Shown here piece after piece: positions 4,535 to 60,041 of a DNA stretch of 64,000 nucleotides. The stretch's first letter is position 1, and each line of letters starts with the position of its first letter. The stretch comes from Candidatus Doudnabacteria bacterium RIFCSPHIGHO2_01_FULL_46_24 (GTDB lineage: Bacteria > Patescibacteriota > Doudnabacteria > UBA920 > O2-02-FULL-48-8), in contig MFEL01000008.1 of NCBI GenBank assembly GCA_001777575.1, positions 42,634-106,633 on the forward strand. The letters run 5' to 3'. The notes below the pieces were generated by a model. That model saw only the letters and a program-made list of their open reading frames with translations, made no database searches and was not told the origin of the DNA. The position numbers were made by a program, and so were the translations under genes.

Positions 4535-5681
4535 CCCTTATTTGTAATTTAATGGATTTGGTTGAATCGAGAAGGGAGGATTCGAACGTGGAAATGTAAG
4601 AATTTCGTTGCTGATGCTTTTCTTGGGCCAATTTAAGCAGGGCAGTCACGACTTCTTCCAATTCCATGCCCGAAGCTTTCCAGAGGTGGTGGTAAAGCGT
4701 TCCCGGCATAGTATTGATCTCATTGGCAAAATACTGCTCAGTTTGCTTATTATACAAAAAATCAACGCGGGCGATGCCGCTGCAGCCGAATTTTTTAAAA
4801 ATTTCCACGGCCAGATTCCGGATTTCTGAAGTTGTTTTGTCATCCAGCCTGGCAGGAATAATGATGTTCTGCTGGGCATTGCCCAACTGTGCGCCGCCGT
4901 CTTTGAGATATTTCTCGTCATAGGAGAATAATTCACTTTCAAACACCGATTCTTGCAGCAGCGATGGGCTGGCGTCGTCATTGCCAAGCACAGCGCAGGT
5001 GACATCCATCAAATTTTCTACGGTTTCTTCCACCAAAAAACGCTCGCCGTAGTGTGCGGCAACCTCAATCGCTTCCTCCAACTCCTTGGGATTTTTTGCT
5101 TTGGCAATTCCGATGGACGAGCCAAGCTTGGCTGGTTTGACAAACAACGGCCACCTAAACTTGCTTGCCTCGTTCATTATTGCACTCTTGTTTTTTTGCC
5201 ACTCTCGGGTGGAGTAAAACAAAAATTTGGCCGTTGGTATGCCAAGTTTCTCATAAAGCTGCTTGGTCAGAATCTTGTCCATGGTCACCGCCGAAGAAAC
5301 CACGTCACAGCCGACGTAAGGCAGGTTAAAAATTTCAAACAAGCCTTGGATTGTGCCGTCTTCGCCGTTCATGCCGTGAAAAGCCGGAAAAGCCAGCTCG
5401 ATTTCGTATCGTTTTTTTAGCAATCCTACCGACGCAAATACCATCTTGCCGTTGCTTGACTGCAAATCCAAAACAAACTTGCTGCGTTTCGGGAGAGGGA
5501 ATTGCTGAAAAAATTTCAGGCTCCCCAGTTCTTCGCCGACATTCCAATCTCCGTCTTTGTCCAAATAAACCGGAGTCACTTTGTGCCCCAGCTTCCTAAG
5601 CGTGGAAATTATGAGCTGCCCAGTAATGATTGAGATATCATGTTCCGGGCTGCGGCTCCCAAAAAATACCCCGATATTCAT
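4515..5681 (-). CDS. ddl: D-alanine--D-alanine ligase
   Basis: MNIGVFFGSRSPEHDISIITG N-terminus and ATP-grasp motifs. Adjacent to murF. Confidence 0.85.
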   Translation of the reverse strand: MNIGVFFGSRSPEHDISIITGQLIISTLRKLGHKVTPVYLDKDGDWNVGEELGSLKFFQQFPLPKRSKFVLDLQSSNGKMVFASVGLLKKRYEIELAFPAFHGMNGEDGTIQGLFEIFNLPYVGCDVVSSAVTMDKILTKQLYEKLGIPTAKFLFYSTREWQKNKSAIMNEASKFRWPLFVKPAKLGSSIGIAKAKNPKELEEAIEVAAHYGERFLVEETVENLMDVTCAVLGNDDASPSLLQESVFESELFSYDEKYLKDGGAQLGNAQQNIIIPARLDDKTTSEIRNLAVEIFKKFGCSGIARVDFLYNKQTEQYFANEINTMPGTLYHHLWKASGMELEEVVTALLKLAQEKHQQRNSYISTFESSLLDSTKSIKLQIRDDKPNP

Positions 5682-5787
5682 AAGTGTGATGCGAATTTAC
5701 GAATTTCATGCGAATGCTGCGAATATGCAAATCTTGGCGTTAGTCCATTCGCATATTTGTAGATTCGCATACATTCGCAGATTCGTA
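5682..5787 (-). repeat. Intergenic repeat family 1, copy A (gcgaat/ttgtagattcgcat words)
   Basis: Shares architecture and about 70% identity with 57898-58020 and 58393-58508. Fills the whole ddl-murF spacer. Confidence 0.7.
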
Positions 5788-24053: not shown

Positions 24054-24399
24054 GTTTTACATACAGATCGGTGTGGTACTGATTTGTCAGCTTCGCCCTT
24101 ACGAACTCCACTGACCGAAGGAAAAGGTCCAAGAGGTTTCCCTTACTTGTTTGACACCGAAGACATTTCTTCTTCAGCGTACCTTTACTAACCAGTATCT
24201 CTTGATCCATCGAACAGCCTTTTTAGAGCCGTCCTGCTTCGCAAGGGTTGCCCCTTACGAAGACCATGGTAGGAACATTCTAACTAGGGTAAAAAATCAC
24301 GTCAAATATTTTTTCAATTACAAAAAATAGCCACATTTGCAGGCTTTTTTGTCAGGCTGTGAATAAGCTGTGCCTATCAAGAGGATAATATCTTAATAT

Positions 24400-24445
24400 C
24401 TATAATATCCCAATATCGATATTAGGATACTAAGATATTGGGATA
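24400..24445 (-). terminator. Perfect 15-bp inverted repeat (taatatcccaatatc / gatattgggatatta) immediately after the mreB-paralog stop
   Basis: AT-rich perfect palindromic arms separated by 16 nt, directly 3' of the stop at 24446. Confidence 0.4.
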
Positions 24446-25453
24446 TTATTTGCTCGCCAATATGCTGCGCTTATAACTCTCCAAGTTTTCCAGTGCCACA
24501 CCCGTTCCTTTGGCTACGCATAAAATAGCATCATCAGCCACATAAGCAGGTACGCCGGTGGATTGGCCAATCAGACGCTCAATGTTCCGCAGGAGCGCCG
24601 TACCGCCAGTTAGAACCATGCCTTTATCAATGATATCCGCGGCCAGCTCCGGCGGCGTTTCCTGCAGGACGGTTCTTACGGCTTTGATGATTTCGCGCAG
24701 TTCTTCCTGGATGGACTCGACAACCTCATTGGTCGAAACCTGTACGGTTTTGGGCAGGCCCTGAATCAAATCCCGGCCGCGAATCTCGATCGTGGTTTCT
24801 TTATCCACGGGCAAAGCCGAGCCAATTTTGATTTTTATCTCCTCAGCCGTACGATCCCCGACCGCCAAGCCATATTTGCGGCGAATATATTCAGCAATAG
24901 CCTGGTCAAGCTTATTACCAGCCACGCGCACGGACGTCTGGGTCACAATTCCGCCCAAAGACAGCACCGCAACATCAGTCGTGCCCCCGCCAATATCGAT
25001 AATCATGTTACCGGAAGGCGTCGAAATATCTATTCCAGCACCTATGGCAGCAGCCACCGTCTCTTTAATGACATAGGCGGCCTTGGCGCCAGCTGCGGTA
25101 GCGGCGTCCACCACGGCGCGGCGCTCAGTCGATGTAATGCCGCCTGGCACAGAAATCATGACTTCCGGCCGGAAGAACCGGATATTGCCCGCCGCCTTGT
25201 TGATAAAATACCGCAACATGGCCTCGGTTACGCGGTAATCCGCAATCACCCCGTCCTTCATGGGCCGGTGCGCCACGATGGTGTCCGGGGTTCGGCCAAG
25301 CATCTCTTTGGCTTCCGCGCCCACAGCCAAAACTTTGTTGTCAACGGTTGAAATAGCCACCACTGTTGGCTCATTGATGATAATGCCTTTTTTCGGCACG
25401 AAGACTAAGGTATTAGCTGTGCCTAAATCTATGCCGATTCTCTTTAGAAACAT
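24446..25453 (-). CDS. mreB: MreB-family actin homolog (second paralog)
   Basis: [14 protein letters not shown] motif. 335 aa. About 50% identical to the copy at 16850-17908. Confidence 0.85.
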
Positions 25454-25521
25454 AGTTATAAATTATTTTATTACGAATTCCGGATTAACGAATTGTCAAT
25501 CCGCAATCCGTTAATTCGCAA
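25454..25521 (-). repeat. Intergenic repeat family 2, copy 1 (cggattaacgaattg / ccgttaattcg words)
   Basis: Related to 55728-55804 and 56960-57034. Contains nested inverted repeats. Confidence 0.65.
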
Positions 25522-35379: not shown

Positions 35380-35479
35380 TTAGTAATAAGTTAAAGGGCT
35401 GCGATGCCCGTTTCGTCATACGGTGACGCTTTACGTCTAACTCTCAACGATACGGGCTTCGTTACCGTAAGACGCTAAA
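35380..35479 (-). repeat. Intergenic repeat family 3, copy 3
   Basis: acg/cgt-rich words (cgtttcgtcatacggtgacgctttacg…ccgtaagacgctaaac). Confidence 0.5.
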
Positions 35480-36771: not shown

Positions 36772-37665
36772 TTAATCGGGGCGGCGACCTTTATTGCTTG
36801 CTTTTAATATTTTAATTTTTTTCTCAGCTTCGTCCTGGAGCGCATCAGTTGCCGGGGCCAAAATTTTCCGAGGGTCATATATGGATAAGTGCTTCTTAAG
36901 ATTTTCGCGAAGTGCCCGATTGAATGCCACCCGCAAATCAGTGTCTATGTTGAATATCGCCACACCAGTTCTGACGGCGAAGCGAATTTGCTGATCCGGC
37001 ACTCCGGATGCGCCATGCAAAACCAACGGGATTTTGACTTTCCTGCGAATCGCTTGAAGGCGTTCAAGATCGATATGTTCCTTGAGCGTCGTTAATACTT
37101 TTTTGGTTTTCGGATTGACTGGAATGCCGTGCATCGAACCAACCGCCACCGCCAAAGTGTCAATCCGTGTTTCAGACACAAATCTTGCGGCTTCATCCGG
37201 ATCAGTCATCAAATCTTTTCCCGACTTGACCTTCTGCCAATCCTCGTTGCCCAAAATCCGACCAAGCTCGGCCTGGACCCAGACACCTCTTTTGTGGGCG
37301 TACGAAACCACGACTCGTGTCAGCTTCACGTTTTCTTTATAAGTCAAATGCGAGGCGTCAATCATCACGCTGCTGTATCCTAAGTTTATCAGTTTTTTAA
37401 TAAGGTTGAAATCATGGCAGTGATCCTGGTGCAGGGCAATCGGGACTCTGGCTTTTCTGGCCTCAATCTTGATTATCGAAACCAGCTCTTCCATGCCGGC
37501 ATATTCCAAAGCCCCAACCGAGGTTTGGATGATCACCGGCGCTTTCTGCTTTTCCGCCGCCCGCACAATCCCCTGTGTCATTTCCAAATCCTGGGTATTG
37601 AAAGCCGGGATGGCATATTTGCCAATTATTCTTTTGTTTACGATTTTTCCAATGTGTACGAGCAT
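36772..37665 (-). CDS. fba: Class II fructose-bisphosphate aldolase
   Basis: Class II ketose-bisphosphate aldolase metal-binding His residues (HLDH, HGASG). Confidence 0.85.
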   Translation of the reverse strand: MLVHIGKIVNKRIIGKYAIPAFNTQDLEMTQGIVRAAEKQKAPVIIQTSVGALEYAGMEELVSIIKIEARKARVPIALHQDHCHDFNLIKKLINLGYSSVMIDASHLTYKENVKLTRVVVSYAHKRGVWVQAELGRILGNEDWQKVKSGKDLMTDPDEAARFVSETRIDTLAVAVGSMHGIPVNPKTKKVLTTLKEHIDLERLQAIRRKVKIPLVLHGASGVPDQQIRFAVRTGVAIFNIDTDLRVAFNRALRENLKKHLSIYDPRKILAPATDALQDEAEKKIKILKASNKGRRPD

Positions 37666-37666
37666 A

Positions 37667-38089
37667 TCAGCGATTCGAAATTAACGAATGGACATCCGAA
37701 TGATCCGAAACTACAAAATCCGGATTAAGAACCCTCTTGGGTTTAATAAAAGAGCCTCTGAAATTTACTATCAAACCAAGTTCTAAATTTGCCGCTTTAA
37801 GGTACCTCTGCATTTGGATATAATCTTCTTTGGTTATAAAAGTCTTTGCTTTGAAATCTACGAAAATTTTGCGCTCGACAAAAAAATCTACTTTGTTGCC
37901 TCTCGGCGAATTTTTGTTCAGTTTACTAATTTCGAACTCTCGCTCATATTCCCACTTTTCTTCTTTAAGTAACTCTTCAAATCTATCGCCATACTGCTTT
38001 TCTCTACAGAAACGTCCGAGCTCTTTCGCTACTCTAAAGCATAAACCACTAATCTTATAAGATAATTTTGCTTCAACTATTTTTGGCAT
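37667..38089 (-). CDS. GxxExxY family protein
   Basis: LSYKISGLCFRVAKELG…YGDRFEELL…ELGLIVNFRG matches the GxxExxY signature. Confidence 0.8.
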   Translation of the reverse strand: MPKIVEAKLSYKISGLCFRVAKELGRFCREKQYGDRFEELLKEEKWEYEREFEISKLNKNSPRGNKVDFFVERKIFVDFKAKTFITKEDYIQMQRYLKAANLELGLIVNFRGSFIKPKRVLNPDFVVSDHSDVHSLISNR

Positions 38090-38171
38090 ATTCGGATGCG
38101 CGCTTTCGTAGTGCGCCTTTCGGATACTATTCGTGGCATTCGAATGTCCAATTCGTGGCTTCGTATCGCTG

Positions 38172-38592: not shown

Positions 38593-39408
38593 TTACCTGA
38601 CGAACATAAAAGTGGAAATAATTTGGTCAAAAACTCTAGCATACTCATCCTGCTGCTCTTGCGTCAAATCGCCTCGGATAGTCATAGATATTAGCATAAC
38701 TCCGGTTGTTTTCTCAATAAATAAATATTCCATAGCCTTGTTTGCGGCGAATCCAGAAACCGCCTCGATCTCTCCGCGGCATCGCAGCGCCTTCGCTCCG
38801 CTGATTGTCAAGGACTTGGGATTGCTGCAATAAGACAGCGAGTATTGCGTCATATTTGTCCCCACGTCTACAGGTCCAAACGGAATCTTTAGCCAGGCGT
38901 AATAATCTTTCAATTCTCCGGCATACTTTAGTGTATCGAATCCGGATTCTTTTGTGCTTAGAACAAGATATTTATCTTTACTGCCGTATTCATCAGTCCT
39001 GTCCACCCAATCGCTGGGGTATTCGAATCTGAACCTGAAATCATAAAACGGGCTAAGATAGGTCTGCCAGTTCGCAGCTTCGCCTGCTCCGACCGAAGCG
39101 TCGGAGTCAAGCTGATTTGTGTCTTCAAACCAAGCGGCCGGGCTCCATCCTGGAGGCAAACAGGAATTATAAAACTTTTTAGTCTCGCCATCATTATTTA
39201 CTGCCAAAATTTCTTTTCTTGAACAATCGTTCCCAAACGTCCAACCATATTGCCAATAAAAGACGCCAGCGACAATGCCGGCAAAAACCAGCCCCAAAAA
39301 CACGTAGCCTAAAACCATGTGGCGGCTAAGCCAATTCTTATTTGGCGGCAAGGTCGGCACTGGTTGGTTGCTTATATTTTTCTGTGACACTCCCTGTTGA
39401 TTTTCCAT
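38593..39408 (-). CDS. Hypothetical secreted/membrane-anchored protein (271 aa)
   Basis: Single N-terminal TM helix. Promoter-operator copy 1 lies directly upstream. Confidence 0.5.
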   Translation of the reverse strand: MENQQGVSQKNISNQPVPTLPPNKNWLSRHMVLGYVFLGLVFAGIVAGVFYWQYGWTFGNDCSRKEILAVNNDGETKKFYNSCLPPGWSPAAWFEDTNQLDSDASVGAGEAANWQTYLSPFYDFRFRFEYPSDWVDRTDEYGSKDKYLVLSTKESGFDTLKYAGELKDYYAWLKIPFGPVDVGTNMTQYSLSYCSNPKSLTISGAKALRCRGEIEAVSGFAANKAMEYLFIEKTTGVMLISMTIRGDLTQEQQDEYARVFDQIISTFMFVR

Positions 39409-39420
39409 ACTTCCGTTCTA

Positions 39421-39444
39421 CATTCATACACGACTGTATGAATG
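39421..39444 (-). promoter_or_regulatory. Operator copy 1: palindrome cattcataca-cgac-tgtatgaatg just downstream of a TATAAT -10 box
   Basis: A 32-bp segment (39420-39451) is identical to 39956-39987. The minus strand reads TATAAT-ACATTCATACAGTCGTGTATGAATG. Confidence 0.6.
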
Positions 39445-39453
39445 TATTATAAA

Positions 39454-39945
39454 TTATAGCTGTAAATCTCTGCTTGCTGAACGCTGCTTAAGTTTCTTTG
39501 TGATAAGACGACTAACTTCCGGAATGCCCTCGGTGACCAAATCCGCCAAAAACGTTTCAGCCGGCATTTTTCTCCGAACTCGCCTTTCCAGGATCGTCTG
39601 TCTCTCCTCGCGTTTTCTCTGGAATTTATTTTCCAAATCAACCAATTTCTGATGAACCTTCTTTAATCCTTCGCCCCGGGTCATCAGCGTATTATTAACG
39701 GTTGTGATTGTTCTGGCGGTAACTTTCAGGGCATCCATGATCTCTTCGTATGTCTGACCATCGATGAGGCGCCTAGCGATTTCTAACCGCTTAGCAAACA
39801 TCTTATATTCTGTGTGTGTAAATAAATCCTTAAACAGCAAACGAACATCCTCCTTGGAATCCATTAAAGTAAAGGCTGACCATAAATTGTTCACATAATG
39901 GCCGAAGTGCTGCGGGTCTAAATGTAATCTTGATAGTTTTGTCAT
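39454..39945 (-). CDS. TrpR-like (YerC/YecD family) helix-turn-helix regulator
   Basis: ARRLIDGQTYEEIMDALKVTARTITTVNN matches the Trp-repressor-like YerC/YecD HTH. Confidence 0.6.
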   Translation of the reverse strand: MTKLSRLHLDPQHFGHYVNNLWSAFTLMDSKEDVRLLFKDLFTHTEYKMFAKRLEIARRLIDGQTYEEIMDALKVTARTITTVNNTLMTRGEGLKKVHQKLVDLENKFQRKREERQTILERRVRRKMPAETFLADLVTEGIPEVSRLITKKLKQRSASRDLQL

Positions 39946-39956
39946 TTTTTATTTCA

Positions 39957-39980
39957 CATTCATACACGACTGTATGAATG
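39957..39980 (-). promoter_or_regulatory. Operator copy 2 (identical palindrome) overlapping the promoter of the TrpR-like gene
   Basis: The minus strand reads gcgcTATAAT-acattcatacagtcgtgtatgaatg-tgaaataaaaaATG. Confidence 0.6.
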
Positions 39981-39990
39981 TATTATAGCG

Positions 39991-40965: not shown

Positions 40966-41062
40966 TTGGTCTATCCCCGACTTGATCGGGGATCCACTAC
41001 AGCTATTAATACCATTTGGTTTTAATTATCGAAGTGGATCCCAAATTAAATTTGGGATAGGC

Positions 41063-42709: not shown

Positions 42710-42759
42710 AAAATACATTGTATTGTATAGAAATTGAAAAAAAATAAAATAAGCTCATC

Positions 42760-42789
42760 AACCTAAATGTGCCATGGCACATTTAGGTT
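42760..42789. promoter_or_regulatory. Perfect 30-bp palindrome aacctaaatgtgccatggcacatttaggtt
   Basis: Centred on CCATGG. Shares the 14-bp core tgtgccatggcaca with the palindrome at 43414-43433. Confidence 0.55.
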
Positions 42790-42811
42790 AACTGACTTTA
42801 TCTGCTTGGTT

Positions 42812-43387
42812 TCAAACTTTTAATCCGAATTTTTTGAGCAAATCGTTTTGGAAATCCAGTTCCTGGACAATGGCAATCCTGACATATCGGTCAATTTCAT
42901 AAATTTCTTTCAAAAAATCTACTTCGTCTTCGCAAGGGTATGGGCATGCCCAGACGCTTTTTTGCATAGGATAAAACCCTATTTCCTTAAGCTGGCGAGT
43001 AAAATAATAGCTGTTTCGCTTGAACTGTTTGGGAATATCAAACATCACCAGGCGCCATTTTTTGTCCCAGGTTTTTTGCGGCTTAATTTGCATCTTGTCC
43101 ATTTTGAACTTCAAAAGTTTCTGCTTGCCATTCTTGGTCATTTTAATGACTGTCTTATGCCTTTCCTCGGTTATCGAAATCAGGTTCTGGTCTTCCATGC
43201 TCTTAAGTGAGCGCCGGATCTGCCACGGTTGATAACGTTTTTGTGTTTTGCCCAAAAAAGGAGCCAAGGCCATGGGCAGGCCAGGCAAGACCGCAACGGC
43301 AACCACAAACCCGGCTGCCGCGATTACGGTTAAAATCATTTTTATTATTTCCGCCTTGCTCCGTTTCTCTTTTTCCACTATTTGCAT
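42812..43387 (-). CDS. PaaX-family transcriptional regulator-like protein with an N-terminal TM helix
   Basis: WDKKWRLVMFDIP…TRQLKEIGFYPMQKSVWACP aligns with the PaaX WDGKWLLLL…KKQLIWQGFGALAPSLMASP segment. A winged-helix-like segment precedes it. Confidence 0.55.
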   Translation of the reverse strand: MQIVEKEKRSKAEIIKMILTVIAAAGFVVAVAVLPGLPMALAPFLGKTQKRYQPWQIRRSLKSMEDQNLISITEERHKTVIKMTKNGKQKLLKFKMDKMQIKPQKTWDKKWRLVMFDIPKQFKRNSYYFTRQLKEIGFYPMQKSVWACPYPCEDEVDFLKEIYEIDRYVRIAIVQELDFQNDLLKKFGLKV

Positions 43388-43413
43388 ATTTTTTAAATTT
43401 ATTGAGCCTACCT

Positions 43414-43433
43414 ATTTGTGCCATGGCACAAAT
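43414..43433. promoter_or_regulatory. Perfect 20-bp palindrome atttgtgccatggcacaaat, 27 nt upstream of the PaaX-like gene start
   Basis: Same CCATGG-centred core as the 42760 palindrome. Putative autoregulatory operator. Confidence 0.55.
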
Positions 43434-43498
43434 GGGTCAACGAGCATGCTCAAATCTACCATTAAGCCTCAATTAACCTAAAAATTATTAATTTCTTG

Positions 43499-43921: not shown

Positions 43922-44896
43922 TCATTTCCTCTTGAGAACTTTTTTAACCGCGTTGAAAATTGCCTTGCCGTCCATGCCCCATTTGGCAATAAGTTCGTTG
44001 GGCTCGCCGCTCTCGCCGAAACTGTCCGGCATGCCTACGAATTCCTGCGGCACCGGAAAATTCCTGCTCAAAACTTCCGCAATTGCCGAGCCAACACCGC
44101 CGGTGATTTGGTGCTCTTCGGCTGAAACTATTGCGCCGGTTTTTTTGACTGATTCGATCAAGGTCCTTTCGTCCATGGGTTTGACTGAAACCATGTTCAA
44201 AACCTCGCACTCAATCCCCTCTTTGGCCAGTTCATTGGCGGCTTGAAGAGCGTAATAAACTTGCGGACCGGCAGCAGCAACGGTGCAATCCTTGCCCTCG
44301 CGGTAAACAAATGCTTTGCCGATTTCAAACGGCGTTTCATCCGTGGTAAATTGCGGAGTTTTTTCCCGCGCCAATCGGATATAGACCGGGCCTTGAATTT
44401 TTGCCGCGGCCACCGTTGCCTTGCGCGCCTCAATCGCGTCGCAAGGCACCAAAACCGTCATGCGCGGCAAAACCCGGGTAATGGCAATATCCTCAAGAGC
44501 TTGGTGAGTCGCGCCATCCGGGCCCACGGAAATGCCGGCGTGAGAGCCAATAATCTTGACATTGTTGCCGGAATAGCAAATTGCCACGCGAATCTGGTCC
44601 CAGTTCCGGCCGGGCGAAAAAACCGCATAAGAGGTGATAAAAGGAATTTTGCCTTCATGCGCCATGCCCGCGCCCAAGCCTGCCAGATTTTGTTCAGCCA
44701 CGCCAACCTCCACAAACCGATCCGGGTAGGCCTTGGCAAAATCCAAAGACCGCGTGGATTCAGTTAAATCGCAGCACAAAACCACTACATTGGGATTTTC
44801 TTTGCCCAAAATCAAAAGGCCGTCGCCGTATCCGTTGCGGATTGGAGCTTGTTTGATATCAGAGGAAAATAAATTGTCGGCTAATTTAACGCTCAT
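43922..44896 (-). CDS. Transketolase, C-terminal subunit (pyrimidine-binding and C-terminal domains)
   Basis: Full-length similarity to split transketolase subunit B. Confidence 0.85.
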   Translation of the reverse strand: MSVKLADNLFSSDIKQAPIRNGYGDGLLILGKENPNVVVLCCDLTESTRSLDFAKAYPDRFVEVGVAEQNLAGLGAGMAHEGKIPFITSYAVFSPGRNWDQIRVAICYSGNNVKIIGSHAGISVGPDGATHQALEDIAITRVLPRMTVLVPCDAIEARKATVAAAKIQGPVYIRLAREKTPQFTTDETPFEIGKAFVYREGKDCTVAAAGPQVYYALQAANELAKEGIECEVLNMVSVKPMDERTLIESVKKTGAIVSAEEHQITGGVGSAIAEVLSRNFPVPQEFVGMPDSFGESGEPNELIAKWGMDGKAIFNAVKKVLKRK

Positions 44897-44949
44897 GGAA
44901 GATTAAAGAGTAAAGATAAAAACGAAAAACATCAACTTAAAATTAAAAA

Positions 44950-45321
44950 CTATCCTTTTTTCAAGGTTAAAATACTAGCCGCTAGTATATTGGATAATTC
45001 TGTTACTTCTTTTAATAAAACTTCAAGCTTATTCTTATCAGCTAGATTAGCATCTCGCATTAGACCCAGCCAGAACTTAGTCTCGTTGGCAGACTTTAAC
45101 GCATGAGTGAAAAAATTGGCAAAATCTTTCCGTGTTCTGCCCGCTTGCGCTTCAATAATATTTGCCCCAATGCTAGTTGCGCTTCTCAAAACTTGTTTGG
45201 ACAAAACTTGACAACTTAGATCACGCTGATCGAGTATTTTTATTAACTTAATAATCTCAAGCGCAAAATTATACGCTCTGGTTTTTGTATCTATCTTAGA
45301 TTTTACTTCGCTGTTTTGCAT
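44950..45321 (-). CDS. Four-helix-bundle protein (23S rRNA intervening-sequence protein family)
   Basis: ATSIGANIIEAQ…FFTHALKSANETKFWL matches the four-helix-bundle family signature. Confidence 0.8.
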   Translation of the reverse strand: MQNSEVKSKIDTKTRAYNFALEIIKLIKILDQRDLSCQVLSKQVLRSATSIGANIIEAQAGRTRKDFANFFTHALKSANETKFWLGLMRDANLADKNKLEVLLKEVTELSNILAASILTLKKG

Positions 45322-45365
45322 TTTGCCTTGAATGTTTTAATCTCTTCTCTTTACGTTTTAATTTT

Positions 45366-46211
45366 CTACTCATGCTCGCTCCTAATCTTCCCTCCCAGGG
45401 TTCTTAATTCTTTCAAGGCTTCGTGGCCTTGCTTGCCATCTGGCGGGATGCCATGCCATTTGTAATCGTATTCCATAAAATCCACGCCCTTGCCAGGGAT
45501 AGTATGACAAATAATCAACGTCGGGTTTTCGGCAATGGCCTTGGCTTTGTTGCAGGCGTCAATAATTTCGCGGATATTATGTCCATCGACTTCAAGAACC
45601 GTCCAGCCGAACGCTTCATACTTTGCCCGCAAAGGCTCAAGCGGCATGACTTCCTCGGTATAGCCGTCAATCTGGATATTGTTGCGGTCCATCAAGGCCG
45701 TAAGGTTGCGTAAATTATTTTTGCCGGCAAACATGGCGGCTTCCCAAATCTGGCCTTCCTCCTGCTCGCCGTCAGACATGACGCAATACACCCGCCAAGG
45801 TTTGTGATCCATTTTAAGCCCCACATAAGCCATGCCCGCGGCTTGCGACAATCCTTGGCCCAAAGGGCCGGAAGAATTTTCCGCGCCCGGCAGAACCTCG
45901 TTGTGCGGATGGCCATGGAGTCGGGTACCGAGCTTTCGCAAAGTCGCTAGTTCATGATGCGGGAAAAATCCGGCATGCGCCAAAGTCGCGTACCACACCG
46001 GGCAAATATGGCCGCAAGACAACACAAACCGGTCCCGCTGGGGCCAGGCCGGATTTTGCGGATCATATTGCATGACGCCAAAATAAAGGGCCGTAAACAC
46101 GTCGGTCATACCCAAAGGTCCGGCCGAGTGCCCGGATTTGGCCGTGACCAGCATCTTGACGATGTCCTGCCGTATTTCGTTAGCTTTTTGTTCCAGTTCT
46201 CTAATATCCAT
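45366..46211 (-). CDS. Transketolase, N-terminal (TPP-binding) subunit
   Basis: TPP-binding GDG…N motif region. Confidence 0.85.
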   Translation of the reverse strand: MDIRELEQKANEIRQDIVKMLVTAKSGHSAGPLGMTDVFTALYFGVMQYDPQNPAWPQRDRFVLSCGHICPVWYATLAHAGFFPHHELATLRKLGTRLHGHPHNEVLPGAENSSGPLGQGLSQAAGMAYVGLKMDHKPWRVYCVMSDGEQEEGQIWEAAMFAGKNNLRNLTALMDRNNIQIDGYTEEVMPLEPLRAKYEAFGWTVLEVDGHNIREIIDACNKAKAIAENPTLIICHTIPGKGVDFMEYDYKWHGIPPDGKQGHEALKELRTLGGKIRSEHE

Positions 46212-47629: not shown

Positions 47630-48380
47630 GTTCGAACTCCTTGATTATTTCCCAAAAATTATTTGGATCCAAAGACGCAGCTCCGACCAAGGCACCGTCA
47701 ATTTCCGAATACTGAGCATATTCCCTCGCATTGTGTTTATTTACTGTGCCGCCATAAAGCACTCGGCAATTTGGTCCCGCAAACTTATGAATATACATGA
47801 TAAGCTCACGCGCATGCTCGCCGTCTGCCGGCTTGGAATGAAGACTGGTGGATATGGCCCAGGTCGGTTCGTAAACAAACACAATTTTATGCAGTTCGTT
47901 CTTTTCAATCCCCTTCATTGTAGCGCGGAATTGCTTGGCTACAATTTTTTTCATGTCCGTTTTTTTGGCTTTGGCCACAGCACCCAGGCATACAATGGGT
48001 ATGATCTTGTGCCTCAACGCCGACCTGACCTTGACATTGACCATTTGGTCTGTCTCGCCCAAACCCAATCTCCGTTCCGAATGGCCCAAAATCGCAAAGT
48101 TTACATTGAACGGCTTGAGCATGGTCGGCGAAGATTCACCTGTAAAAGCTCCGGCTTCTTCCCAGTGCATATTCTGTGCTCCCAATTTTACGCTGTGCAC
48201 ATAATGCGAAAATGCCGGCAAGTACAGAGCCGGAGGGCAAATTACGGCTTCGCTTTTGTTCATCAATGGCGCGCGGTGCTCCAAGATCATCAAAATCCTG
48301 CGCGCTTCACTCAGCGTTTGGGGATTCATTTTCCAGTTTGCGACTATAAGCTTTTTTTTATACATAAATTTAATTATCAA
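47607..48380 (-). CDS. tpiA: Triosephosphate isomerase
   Basis: LIVANWKMN N-terminus. Catalytic His/Glu. Confidence 0.9.
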   Translation of the reverse strand: MIIKFMYKKKLIVANWKMNPQTLSEARRILMILEHRAPLMNKSEAVICPPALYLPAFSHYVHSVKLGAQNMHWEEAGAFTGESSPTMLKPFNVNFAILGHSERRLGLGETDQMVNVKVRSALRHKIIPIVCLGAVAKAKKTDMKKIVAKQFRATMKGIEKNELHKIVFVYEPTWAISTSLHSKPADGEHARELIMYIHKFAGPNCRVLYGGTVNKHNAREYAQYSEIDGALVGAASLDPNNFWEIIKEFERESIHRG

Positions 48381-48448
48381 TTTTCAGTTTTCAATTTACA
48401 ATTAATTTTCAAAATTCAATTTTCAAATCTTGATAATTGAAAATTATG
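48381..48448 (-). repeat. Tandem 'ttttcaa/caatttt' word spacer upstream of tpiA
   Basis: caattttcagttttcaatttacaattaattttcaaaattcaattttcaaatc. Confidence 0.5.
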
Positions 48449-55727: not shown

Positions 55728-55804
55728 ATTCTTATAATTATTTATTAACGAATTGCGGATTACGGATTATCAATTCACAATTCGTTAATCCGTTAATTCG
55801 CCAA
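55728..55804 (-). repeat. Intergenic repeat family 2, copy 2 (between rplF and rplR)
   Basis: ttaacgaattg…caattcgttaa 11-bp inverted repeat nested with a cggattacgg / ccgttaatccg pair. Confidence 0.65.
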
Positions 55805-56959: not shown

Positions 56960-57034
56960 AATGCTTAAAAATTATTTATTAACGGATTACGGGTTACGGA
57001 TTTGCAATTCGCAATTCGTTAATCCGTTAATTCT
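56960..57034 (-). repeat. Intergenic repeat family 2, copy 3 (between rplE and rpsZ)
   Basis: ttattaacggattacgggttacgg…caattcgttaatccgttaattc. Confidence 0.65.
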
Positions 57035-57897: not shown

Positions 57898-58020
57898 AAG
57901 AATAATATGATGCTAATTTGCTAATTTATGCCAATTGGCGAATTGCTAATGGCCCAACGCTAAGTGTTTGGTTATTCGCAATTTGTAGATTGGCATGACA
58001 TTCGTAGATTCGCATCGTAT
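57898..58020 (-). repeat. Intergenic repeat family 1, copy B (between rplN and rplX)
   Basis: About 85-90% identical to 58393-58508. Confidence 0.75.
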
Positions 58021-58392: not shown

Positions 58393-58508
58393 GAATATGT
58401 GATGCTAATTTGCGAATCTTATGCCAATCTGGCGAATTGCTAATGGTCCAACGCTAAGGGTTGGGTTATTCGCAATTTGTAGATTGGCATTGCATTTGTA
58501 GATTCGCA
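58393..58508 (-). repeat. Intergenic repeat family 1, copy C (between rpsQ and rplN)
   Basis: Near-identical to copy B. Contains a tandem atttgtagatt(g/c)gcat unit. Confidence 0.75.
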
Positions 58509-59342: not shown

Positions 59343-59396
59343 ATTTATAGATTAAAGATTAAAGAGAAAAGATCAAAATATTTTGCGTTTTTCTCT

Positions 59397-60041
59397 TTAC
59401 GTTTTACTCTTGTCAAAGACTTCGCCCTTATTTATCCAAACCTTTACGCCGATCGTGCCGTAGGTCGTGTAGGCAGTGGCTTTGGCAAAATCAATATTTG
59501 CGCGCAGGGTGTGCAGGGGTAATTTTCCCTTCATCAACCGTTCCGACCGCGCAATGTCAGAACCGCCCAGCCTCCCGGCGACTTCCAGCTTGACGCCGAT
59601 GGCACCGGATTCCATAATCTGTTCAATTGAGCCTTTCATGGCTCTGCGGTAAGCAATCCGCTTCTCCAGCTGGTCGGCGATATTTTGGGCAATAACCTGG
59701 GCTTGCAAATTGATTTCTTTGACTTCCTCAATATTGATCTTAATGTCCAATTTCTTTCCCAGATGTCTGACGATCTTCTTCTTCAACTCGTCAACTCCAC
59801 CGCCGCCCTTACCGATAATCATGCCTGGTTTGACGGTTTTGATGGTCACGTTGACGGCTGCTCCAAAACGCTCGATATCAATGCGGACCACTCCGGCTTT
59901 TTTTAAAATGTTAAACAAAAACTGCCTAATCCTGGTGTCTTCTTCCAGATACTGAGAAAAATGAGTCTTTGTCAGCCAGCGCGATTTCCAAGTGTCGGTT
60001 ATTTTCAGCCTAAAGCTGTTGGCGTTAACCTTTTGTCCCAT
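59397..60041 (-). CDS. rpsC: 30S ribosomal protein S3
   Basis: Start reassigned to MGQKVNANSFRLKIT (ATG at 60041). KH domain. Confidence 0.9.
   Translation of the reverse strand: MGQKVNANSFRLKITDTWKSRWLTKTHFSQYLEEDTRIRQFLFNILKKAGVVRIDIERFGAAVNVTIKTVKPGMIIGKGGGGVDELKKKIVRHLGKKLDIKINIEEVKEINLQAQVIAQNIADQLEKRIAYRRAMKGSIEQIMESGAIGVKLEVAGRLGGSDIARSERLMKGKLPLHTLRANIDFAKATAYTTYGTIGVKVWINKGEVFDKSKT

Follow-up and report, generated by a model that had tools for sequence, protein, structure and literature searches.

Small genes between split hairpin arms in the transketolase and aldolase operons of a Candidatus Doudnabacteria bacterium: evidence for IVS-like cassettes

Two small genes are wedged into central-metabolism operons in a 64-kb stretch of the genome of “Candidatus Doudnabacteria,” an uncultured groundwater bacterium of the candidate phyla radiation (CPR) from the Rifle aquifer. 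Both are best read as the cargo of cassettes resembling rRNA intervening sequences (IVSs), in which one open reading frame (ORF) sits between the two halves of a split hairpin in an intercistronic spacer of a CPR operon. This stretch, called the window below, matches contig MFEX01000008 of the Candidatus Doudnabacteria assembly GCA_001779995.1 and is the part of the genome that was surveyed; relatives were seen as genome fragments, and L-numbers denote loci from related genomes. The first gene encodes a 123-aa four-helix bundle (4HB) protein of the 23S_rRNA_IVP/S23p/Avd-like family (44950 to 45321; PF05635 and TIGR02436). It lies between the genes for the two transketolase subunits, with the N-terminal, thiamine-diphosphate-binding subunit (tktN; 45366 to 46211; PF00456, 192 bits) upstream and the C-terminal subunit, comprising the pyrimidine-binding and C-terminal domains (tktC; 43922 to 44896; PF02779 and PF02780), downstream. 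The second encodes a 140-aa GxxExxY protein of a PD-(D/E)XK-fold nuclease family (37667 to 38089; PF13366 and TIGR04256), and a single base separates its stop codon from the start codon of the downstream host gene, fba, encoding class II fructose-bisphosphate aldolase (36772 to 37665; PF01116, 304 bits). All five genes are on the minus strand, as are the cassettes, arms, and ORF-less hairpins described below, and all gene assignments come from hidden Markov model scans with scores above curated cutoffs. An earlier note on this DNA had placed the two genes at these junctions and had suggested that they are mobile or insertion-associated ORFs; both placements were confirmed, and the proposed mobility is supported by synteny, inverted arms, and the GxxExxY phylogeny.

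The two cassettes follow one plan, with a single ORF between a 5′ and a 3′ half-stem in ~470 to 505 nt, and in the window the arms occupy the intercistronic spacers exactly. The 4HB cassette (469 nt; 44897 to 45365) takes up the whole gap between the stop codon of tktN and the start codon of tktC. Its 5′ arm (45332 to 45366) is purine rich on the sense strand, and its 3′ arm (44898 to 44932) is pyrimidine rich on that strand and stops a single base short of the tktC ATG. Together they form a 35-nt inverted repeat that is 74% complementary and whose boundaries are not sharp. The arm duplex has an energy of −26.1 kcal/mol, compared to −16.7 ± 3.1 kcal/mol for dinucleotide shuffles, and only 7 of 1,000 shuffles are as good. 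The arms do not fold alone (the minimum free energy of the 5′ arm is 0), and in the minimum-energy fold of the sense transcript a terminal stem closes the 4HB ORF; the fold of the whole cassette has a z of −1.5. The encoded protein scores 81.8 bits against PF05635 (cutoff, 33.8) and 93.2 bits against TIGR02436 (cutoff, 24), and a profile built from 28 homologs matches structures 2RLD (E = 1e−20) and 2GSC (E = 0.003), both uncharacterized pentamers deposited with five chains each.

The GxxExxY cassette (504 nt; 37668 to 38171) has termini AGCGAT...ATCGCT. A 5′ arm (38130 to 38171) of CGAAT/CGGAT-type units, which matches the GxxExxY arm of L182, and a 3′ arm (37668 to 37709), which is 91% identical to that of L095, form a 42-nt inverted repeat with a duplex energy of −62.4 kcal/mol, compared to −33.7 ± 4.6 kcal/mol for shuffled arms, and none of 500 dinucleotide shuffles is as good. 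Again, the arms close the ORF in the minimum-energy fold of the sense transcript and do not fold by themselves (z = −0.18 for the 5′ arm and 0.09 for the 3′ arm). Because neither arm of either cassette folds alone (z of about 0), the arms are half-stems rather than complete hairpins. The 3′ arm lies inside the 3′ end of the ORF, where the last ~13 codons are the arm read in frame, encoding the tail SDHSDVHSLISNR; this accounts for the odd Ser-Asp/Asn/His-repeat C-terminal tails of the GxxExxY proteins called type A below. Residues 128 to 140 have a pLDDT of <50 in the AlphaFold2 (AF2) model and are predicted to be disordered. The GC profile of the window dips at both small genes, with values of 0.333 for the 4HB cassette versus 0.522 for the tkt genes and 0.381 for the GxxExxY cassette versus 0.475 for fba.

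This layout is family wide. The database holds 4,950 4HB homologs, the best of which are 60 to 71% identical and come from many CPR phyla, and a metagenome scan yielded 80 4HB loci, ~72 to 73 of them unique and used for arm statistics. Nearly all 80 have a purine-rich 5′ arm of RCGNAAA-type units (e.g., gcgtaaagcgaaaagcgtaaaac) and a complementary 3′ arm. The flank duplex averages −34.1 kcal/mol for 73 4HB cassettes versus −20.3 kcal/mol for 86 ordinary neighboring genes (Mann-Whitney P = 6e−16), and the arm duplex averages −28.7 kcal/mol versus −17.5 kcal/mol for shuffled arms (72 loci). The best 4HB duplex consists of about 48 pairs joining the region from about −40 to +15 around the ATG to that from the stop codon to about +55, which places the translation start region inside the stem in most copies. 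The upstream neighbor shares the orientation of the 4HB gene at 63 of 65 loci (median gap, 35 nt), as does the downstream neighbor at 61 of 67 (median gap, 51 nt), and the GC content of the cassette is lower than that of its flanks at all 75 loci compared (0.319 versus 0.412).

Eight GxxExxY copies were examined (those of the window, L029, L095, L096, L179, L182, L185, and L187). The arms are clearly complementary in five of them (z of about −2 to −6) and weak in L095 and L185, while those of L029 were found only by a search for the arm-unit pattern. The arms of 4HB cassettes are written in A-rich RCGNAAA/AAAGAG units and those of GxxExxY cassettes in CGAAT/CGGAT hexamers with AGCGATCC...GGATCGCT termini, and the type A termini AGCGATCC/GGATCGCT are common to the window, L095, L096, L179, and L182. 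The window GxxExxY arms also match those of L096, L179, and L182 in blastn-short searches. Judged by these comparisons, each protein family has an arm repeat vocabulary of its own. The median dN/dS of 0.13 over 98 pairs of 4HB ORFs indicates purifying selection on the 4HB proteins and hence a function.

Could such pairing be a chance effect, with A-rich and T-rich low-complexity spacers of an AT-rich genome merely looking complementary? The window 4HB arms would allow it, being only 74% complementary and of low complexity, as would the z of only −1.5 for the whole 4HB cassette. However, the shuffles of either pair of arms seldom or never match the real duplex, and the null provided by neighboring genes is rejected at the P value given above. 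The layout is also repeated in more than 70 independent loci, and specific sequence matches tie the arms to ORF-less hairpins elsewhere in the window. The shuffles, the neighboring-gene null, and the arm-hairpin matches already contradict this explanation, to which we give almost no credence.

The contents of the tkt junction differ among relatives. A scan of species-representative genomes for tktN yielded 80 related loci with tktN identities from 92% down to 61%, and the 4HB gene is missing from the tktN-tktC junction in all 80. In most of these relatives the two genes are adjacent or overlap (gap of −5 to +30 nt), and they are separate genes at all 78 of the 80 loci at which both halves were found. 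Split transketolase is thus, to judge from these genomes, ancestral in CPR bacteria. Since every one of these relatives has separate genes without the 4HB insert, the insert did not split the enzyme, contrary to what the earlier note had implied. The closest species (L015; 92% tktN identity) has an unrelated 99-aa ORF at the junction, L023 (81% identity) has an empty site with an ATGA stop/start overlap, and other lineages have inserts encoding DUF2339 or DUF5671 membrane proteins or a pilin-like protein. On these comparisons, the junction is an insertion hotspot.

The L015 ORF (4842 to 5141) is of a fast-evolving, charged kind of 68 to 112 aa, beginning MNR and with no Pfam match, which Doudnabacteria relatives have between tktN and tktC (L015 and the equivalent gaps of L016 to L025). 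The L015 copy begins within the tktN stop codon, and the copies of several relatives run up to the tktC start. L056 has a Y1/IS200-like transposase gene at the junction (4841 to 5500; PF01797, E = 3e−10); each end bears the palindrome CAGAAGGTGCCCTTCTGTAATA, of which another copy, in inverted orientation, lies inside the gene. In a same-species scaffold (L013, 888 to 1032), the sequence between tktN and the 4HB gene is longer and different; it was rejected as a strain difference, as it contains a run of Ns and is a scaffolding gap.

The junction upstream of fba occurs in four states among Doudnabacteria whose Fba proteins are 76 to 83% identical. It is empty in L188, with a TAAATG overlap; it holds an ORF-less hairpin in a 114-nt gap in L190; it holds a type A GxxExxY gene in the window and L095, with proteins 79% identical to each other; and it holds a type B gene in L185 and L187, with proteins 69% identical to each other. 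Types A and B differ in arm vocabulary and are only 53 to 54% identical at this one site, where all-against-all identity of the Fba proteins is 80 to 83%, whereas type A is 61 to 65% identical to copies located in secretion gene clusters at other loci. The GxxExxY genes are thus incongruent with the fba tree, which bears out the phylogenetic check that had been suggested for a mobile gene. The presence of type A in L095 indicates that the insertion at fba is old enough to be common to at least one other species.

Close relatives of the cassettes are also found in unrelated surroundings. Three pairs of 4HB proteins (L146/L171, L101/L110, and L103/L106) are 82 to 89% identical and lie between unrelated genes, while pairs that are 96 to 100% identical have orthologous flanks in common. 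The hosts are housekeeping genes of many kinds, the 102 neighbors matching 159 Pfam families. In type IV secretion-like clusters encoding TrbL, PrgI, TraC-like, and VirB4-like proteins (L182, 1 to 6423; L179, 1 to 6438; L096, 2400 to 8000), 4HB, GxxExxY, PIN, and GIY-YIG wedge genes are found at differing junctions; the order in L182, for example, is 4HB, PIN_3, 4HB, PrgI, 4HB, TraC-like, GxxExxY, VirB4-like, and GIY-YIG.

The observations above also bear on the idea that the two genes are ordinary accessory genes of the host (regulators, defense genes, or toxin-antitoxin-like genes) with repeats that are operators and a patchy distribution that reflects differential loss. Purifying selection on the proteins would be expected in that case, the GxxExxY-fba adjacency has been inherited in at least two species, and TrpR-like and PaaX-like genes of the window do have operator-like flanking palindromes. 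However, such palindromes fold by themselves, whereas the cassette arms are nonfolding half-stems, and accessory genes of the host would not account for the lowered GC in 75 of 75 cassettes, the incongruent phylogeny at the fba site, the related cassettes in unrelated contexts, or a tkt junction at which none of 80 relatives has the 4HB gene and the closest has an unrelated ORF. We regard this idea as very improbable.

For the same reason, not every bracketed small gene in the window was accepted as a cassette, and the rplN, TrpR-like, and PaaX-like genes were set apart because they are flanked by whole hairpins or palindromes that fold by themselves. A 35-nt unit is present twice, at 39419 to 39453 and 39948 to 39982, directly upstream of the TrpR-like gene (39454 to 39945) and of the next gene (a 271-aa ORF at 38593 to 39408). 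In each unit a TATAAT-like box precedes a perfect 12-bp hairpin (ACATTCATACAC-GACT-GTGTATGAATGT), and the two genes look as if they had a promoter and operator in common. The TrpR-like gene occupies a different operon position in L095. The PaaX_M/Cas2-like gene (191 aa; 42812 to 43387) is bracketed by a self-folding palindrome, AACCTAAATGTGCCATGGCACATTTAGGTT, at 42753 to 42790 and 43410 to 43445. A pair of AACCTAAATGTGCCATGGCACATTTAGGTT palindromes about 600 nt apart is also present in another Doudnabacteria species (L016, 6345 to 6372 and 6946 to 6977), and the pair may be an autoregulatory operator pair or a bracketed cassette of another kind.

The arm sequences also occur in the window as hairpins without an ORF. 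One such hairpin, of the 4HB-arm type (59349 to 59410), is an inverted repeat in the rpsC-rplP spacer that has TAAAACGTAAAGAGAA in common with the 5′ arm of the 4HB cassette and CTCTTTAATCTT in common with its 3′ arm. Its alignments to the two arms are in the correct order and score 38 and 40, compared to means of 22.6 and 25.2 for shuffled sequences (standard deviation, about 4), and in blastn-short searches at least 15 4HB cassettes at other loci have arms that match it. Its 5′ side provides the last codons of rpsC (59397 to 59410; K-S-K-T-stop), so that here a repeat element adds coding sequence to a core gene, like the arm-encoded tail of the GxxExxY protein. Three hairpins of the GxxExxY-arm type, with CGAAT/CGGAT vocabulary, lie in the murA-mreB spacer (25474 to 25518; −23 kcal/mol, z = −4.3), in the rplF-rplR spacer (55749 to 55800; z = −3.6), and downstream of rplE (56983 to 57026; z = −3.5). 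The sequences around the latter two (55737 to 55799 and 56970 to 57033) are 90.5% identical and form a dispersed repeat.

A longer hairpin repeat of ~100 nt, with GCGAAT/ATTCGC vocabulary, is found in the rpsQ-rplN spacer (58393 to 58508; z = −6.5) and again in the spacer downstream of rplN (57898 to 58020), the former being 92% identical over 109 nt to the part of the latter at 57908 to 58014. It has 24 nt in common with the 5′ end of the type B GxxExxY cassette of L185. A further hairpin with GCGAAT vocabulary lies in the murF-ddl spacer (5692 to 5785; z = −5.3), and both this hairpin and the ~100-nt repeat match the type B GxxExxY arms of L185 and L187 in blastn-short searches. The ORF-less hairpins are thus dispersed repeats that are 90 to 92% identical between spacers. 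Their occupancy also differs among relatives: in the orthologous gap-pgk spacer, L095 and L185 have 4HB-type hairpins that are homologous to each other, the window has a hairpin of another kind, and L187 has no hairpin.

Several 4HB cassettes are followed directly by an extra ORF-less hairpin in their own vocabulary or by additional arm repeats (L113, 2873 to 2964; L129, 2744 to 2838; L142, 2433 to 2540; L115, 2880 to 3010), which suggests nested or tandem insertions. Other spacers of the window contain further structures: an AATATC/GATATT hairpin after mreB (24385 to 24449), a TTTTCAA/TTGAAAA hairpin between galT and tpiA (48379 to 48446), a 90-nt palindrome between pfkB and a 2-hydroxyacid dehydrogenase gene (40971 to 41060), and a GC-richer hairpin between gap and pgk (35380 to 35479). 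In this genome, a structured spacer seems to be the norm.

Taken with the junction comparisons, the arms and the ORF-less hairpins make it probable that the two genes are carried by insertion cassettes, with arms that are part of the element and that the encoded protein recognizes, and with the bare hairpins as nonautonomous derivatives. The layout matches that of an ORF-bearing rRNA IVS. The Coxiella 23S IVS is 428 to 444 nt long and has a 28-bp terminal stem, a single S23p ORF, and a GC content below that of the genome, and it is excised by RNase III (PMC4990558). The 4HB cassette resembles the rRNA IVSs of Coxiella, Leptospira, and CPR bacteria in its PF05635 family and in size (469 nt versus 428 to 444 nt), and both cassettes share with them a single ORF inside a stem of complementary termini, low GC, and a sporadic distribution. 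The 23S_rRNA_IVP ORFs are also present in CPR rRNA insertions (10.1101/2024.02.27.582315). The earlier note had held both families to be typical of rRNA IVSs or selfish insertions; the link to rRNA IVSs stands for 4HB only, on the strength of the Pfam name and these two sources.

The rRNA IVSs differ in lying inside an rRNA helix, whereas the window cassettes lie in the mRNA spacer between protein-coding cistrons. None of the 20 related 4HB loci tested has its cassette inside an rRNA gene, and the window contains neither an rRNA gene nor a paralog of the 4HB or GxxExxY protein. Rfam searches gave nothing at gathering thresholds for the whole window and nothing meaningful at an E of ≤1 for 36.5 to 46.5 kb. 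In addition, the Coxiella S23p ORF is reported to be decaying, in contrast to the 4HB ORFs studied here with their signature of purifying selection, and the rRNA IVSs are excised by RNase III, whereas the 4HB cassettes show no sense-strand G·U signature.

This resemblance raises the possibility that the cassettes act purely at the RNA level, as passive inserts whose arms serve as an RNase III substrate, with excision leaving the tkt and fba messages functional. They would then spread only by homologous recombination through conserved flanks after DNA uptake, and the proteins would have no role in mobility. Much of the layout agrees with such a scheme, including the protein family and plan shared with RNase III-excised rRNA IVSs (PMC4990558), the nearly constant co-orientation with the operon, the spacers exactly filled by arms, and the start region within the stem. 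The window cassettes also have no promoter-like site in their arms and no terminator on the coding strand, and neither a transposase nor a target-site duplication was found. However, G·U wobble pairs are no more common on the sense than on the antisense strand, and the GxxExxY gene of L095 persists despite a decayed stem. Recombination through flanks cannot account for close cassettes between unrelated genes, nor can the scheme as a whole account for an arm vocabulary that follows the protein family across phyla, and strong purifying selection shows that the proteins do something. A purely RNA-level explanation is therefore unlikely in our view, although it is the best of the rivals.

The GxxExxY protein also invites comparison with a different kind of mobile gene. 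In T4-type phages, free-standing homing endonucleases (seg and mob) are small nuclease genes located between conserved genes and variably present among relatives. The GxxExxY and GIY-YIG wedge genes fit this pattern, and they might by analogy cleave cassette-free junctions and be copied in by repair, with the arms being incidental and the 4HB genes hitchhiking or acting as accessory factors. The GxxExxY protein scores 67.9 bits against TIGR04256 (cutoff, 35) and 69.7 bits against PF13366 (cutoff, 22), and residues D68 and K80 are invariant and D/E78 is present in at least 90% among 28 homologs. The AF2 model (mean pLDDT, 84.8) has only PD-(D/E)XK nucleases as its top Foldseek matches, which are weak (E of about 1e−3; TM of about 0.45) and include Cas4, lambda-type exonucleases, the archaeal RNA-splicing endonuclease, and Hjc. 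Thus, the protein is modeled as a PD-(D/E)XK fold with a conserved motif, and nuclease activity is predicted. A sequence search of the PDB gave no significant match, and a scan of viral contigs found no relatives.

An intact nuclease motif and fold, together with the position of the gene between conserved genes, the cassette-free alleles in relatives, and the GIY-YIG wedge genes of the same operons, would suit homing, as would the dominance of homing endonucleases among CPR rRNA insertions (10.1101/2024.02.27.582315). However, cassettes of the same layout, and in greater number, encode the 4HB protein, which is not a nuclease and has no nuclease domain. Homing also predicts one site per lineage, whereas related cassettes occur at many unrelated junctions, and it leaves the family-specific arms and the ORF-less hairpins unexplained. 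Homing is an improbable account of the cassettes. Among the other wedge genes, an 86-aa GIY-YIG gene of L095 (2541 to 2801), between a MamF/MmsF-like gene and pfkB, is flanked by a perfect 13-bp inverted repeat (ATCCCGTTAGAGA/TCTCTAACGGGAT; z = −5.7), while PIN_3 and one GIY-YIG wedge gene have no arms.

Several results count against the reading of the genes as mobile cassettes with recognized arms. The stem of L095 is partly decayed (z of about −1.5) even though the gene has been retained since the common ancestor, and several 4HB copies in secretion gene clusters have no significant arms. Arms paired across loci reach −24.7 kcal/mol, near the −28.7 kcal/mol for a locus's own arms, and in a covariation test its own arm was the best partner at only 3 of 72 4HB loci. 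The small difference reflects the vocabulary common to all these arms, whose repetitive makeup also leaves the register of an alignment ambiguous; own-versus-cross pairing is informative only for copies with atypical arms, for which alone a compensatory change is clear. Strand asymmetry is absent, the sense and antisense strands having 373 and 371 G·U pairs, respectively; duplex energies are alike (−34.2 versus −34.5 kcal/mol), and a comparison of G·U with A·C mismatches is also flat, so that selection on the sense RNA is not demonstrated. No catalytic activity is known for the 4HB protein, the cassettes encode neither a recombinase nor a transposase, and neither cassette has direct repeats or a target-site duplication beyond conserved coding sequence. 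Flanking direct repeats had been proposed as a check on insertion; none was found, and what brackets both genes is significant inverted arms. A CATGAG motif on both sides of the 4HB insert was considered as a target-site duplication and rejected because the copy at the tktN end is coding sequence (E-H-E-stop) conserved in all Doudnabacteria.

Other known elements show both likenesses to the cassettes and differences from them. The repetitive extragenic palindrome (REP) and REPIN systems with their REP-associated tyrosine transposases (RAYTs) are alike in having one protein gene flanked by an inverted repeat that is also dispersed without an ORF in spacers. However, RAYT is a Y1 (HUH) transposase, whereas the cassette proteins are a four-helix bundle and a PD-(D/E)XK protein with no PF01797 match, the PF01797 gene of L056 being the only one at the tkt junction. 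Furthermore, REPs are complete hairpins and the cassette arms are half-stems, and only a handful of ORF-less copies occur in the 64 kb. Correia elements of Neisseria and the enterobacterial ERIC/IRU sequences (enterobacterial repetitive intergenic consensus, or intergenic repeat units) are short inverted-repeat elements that occur in operons, are cotranscribed, and form hairpins. The ORF-less hairpins resemble these repeats, which are akin to miniature inverted-repeat transposable elements (MITEs), but such repeats have defined terminal repeats and target-site duplications and no ORF, whereas no duplication is seen here and some elements have a conserved gene. Likewise, the seg and mob genes differ from the cassettes, which have arms, ORF-less derivatives, and many junctions.

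Integron cassettes are promoterless single-ORF units with an imperfect inverted repeat, one orientation, and very short spacers. Their attC site is present only at the 3′ end, and they form arrays beside an integrase at one locus, whereas the cassettes described here have arms on both sides of the ORF and are scattered in housekeeping operons with no integrase. Avd, from diversity-generating retroelements, belongs to the same four-helix-bundle superfamily as the 4HB protein, and some L182 copies match PF22296 (bAvd; PMC10053308). The window 4HB gene differs in having neither a reverse transcriptase nor a template/variable repeat pair beside it; its immediate neighbors are tktN and tktC, and no reverse transcriptase-like ORF or paralog adjoins it. 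We found no functional literature for 4HB or GxxExxY proteins outside rRNA IVSs and the Avd of diversity-generating retroelements.

Because no transposase, target-site duplication, or RNA-strand asymmetry was found, the mechanism of the insertion cassettes is one that we infer. The lack of a promoter and terminator, together with the orientation of the host operon, points to expression by read-through from the host operon. The cassette arms take the place of the spacer, and their pairing, if it occurs in vivo as RNA or as single-stranded DNA, would close off the insert and put the upstream stop codon beside the downstream start codon. In most copies the ribosome-binding site and start codon of the cassette itself would likewise lie within the stem, so that pairing as RNA could combine an IVS-like neutralization of the insert with sequestration of the start codon. 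It is just as conceivable that the arms work as hairpins in single-stranded DNA or as inverted repeats to which a protein binds. The GxxExxY protein, as a PD-(D/E)XK nuclease, and the 4HB protein, as an Avd-like nucleic acid-binding oligomer, may each recognize their own arms, and this recognition may drive or stabilize insertion. The ORF-less hairpins would then be nonautonomous derivatives, as REPINs are to RAYT or MITEs to transposons, and the two forms could have originated by insertion of an ORF into a hairpin loop or by deletion of the ORF from a cassette.

A bolder proposal, which we offer tentatively and doubt on balance, is that the 4HB and GxxExxY proteins are dedicated mobility or maintenance proteins of a previously unrecognized class of hairpin mobile elements. 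The autonomous copy would be an ORF in a split hairpin and the nonautonomous copy a bare hairpin, and the elements would colonize any transcribed, conserved spacer or loop (including rRNA helices, giving the classical IVSs, and operon gaps) without known transposase chemistry. If this is true, it would at last supply the function of the IVS proteins, awaited since the 1990s.

IVS-like and REP/RAYT-like arrangements, which the operon cassettes resemble, are already known; in the literature that we searched, cassettes with a split-hairpin layout seem not to have been described from operons. S23p/4HB, known for decades, and GxxExxY are families with very many members, and in CPR bacteria both have the same split-hairpin layout outside rRNA genes. 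Arms that track the protein family, with gene-less hairpins nearby, lead to the testable idea that each protein recognizes its own flanking hairpin. The cassettes would also account for a recurrent oddity of CPR genomes, in which small conserved hypothetical genes and structured spacers are found in housekeeping and secretion operons. For annotation, such genes would be treated as insertion cassettes rather than as members of the operon, and their presence raises the question of how minimal genomes tolerate or use such inserts.

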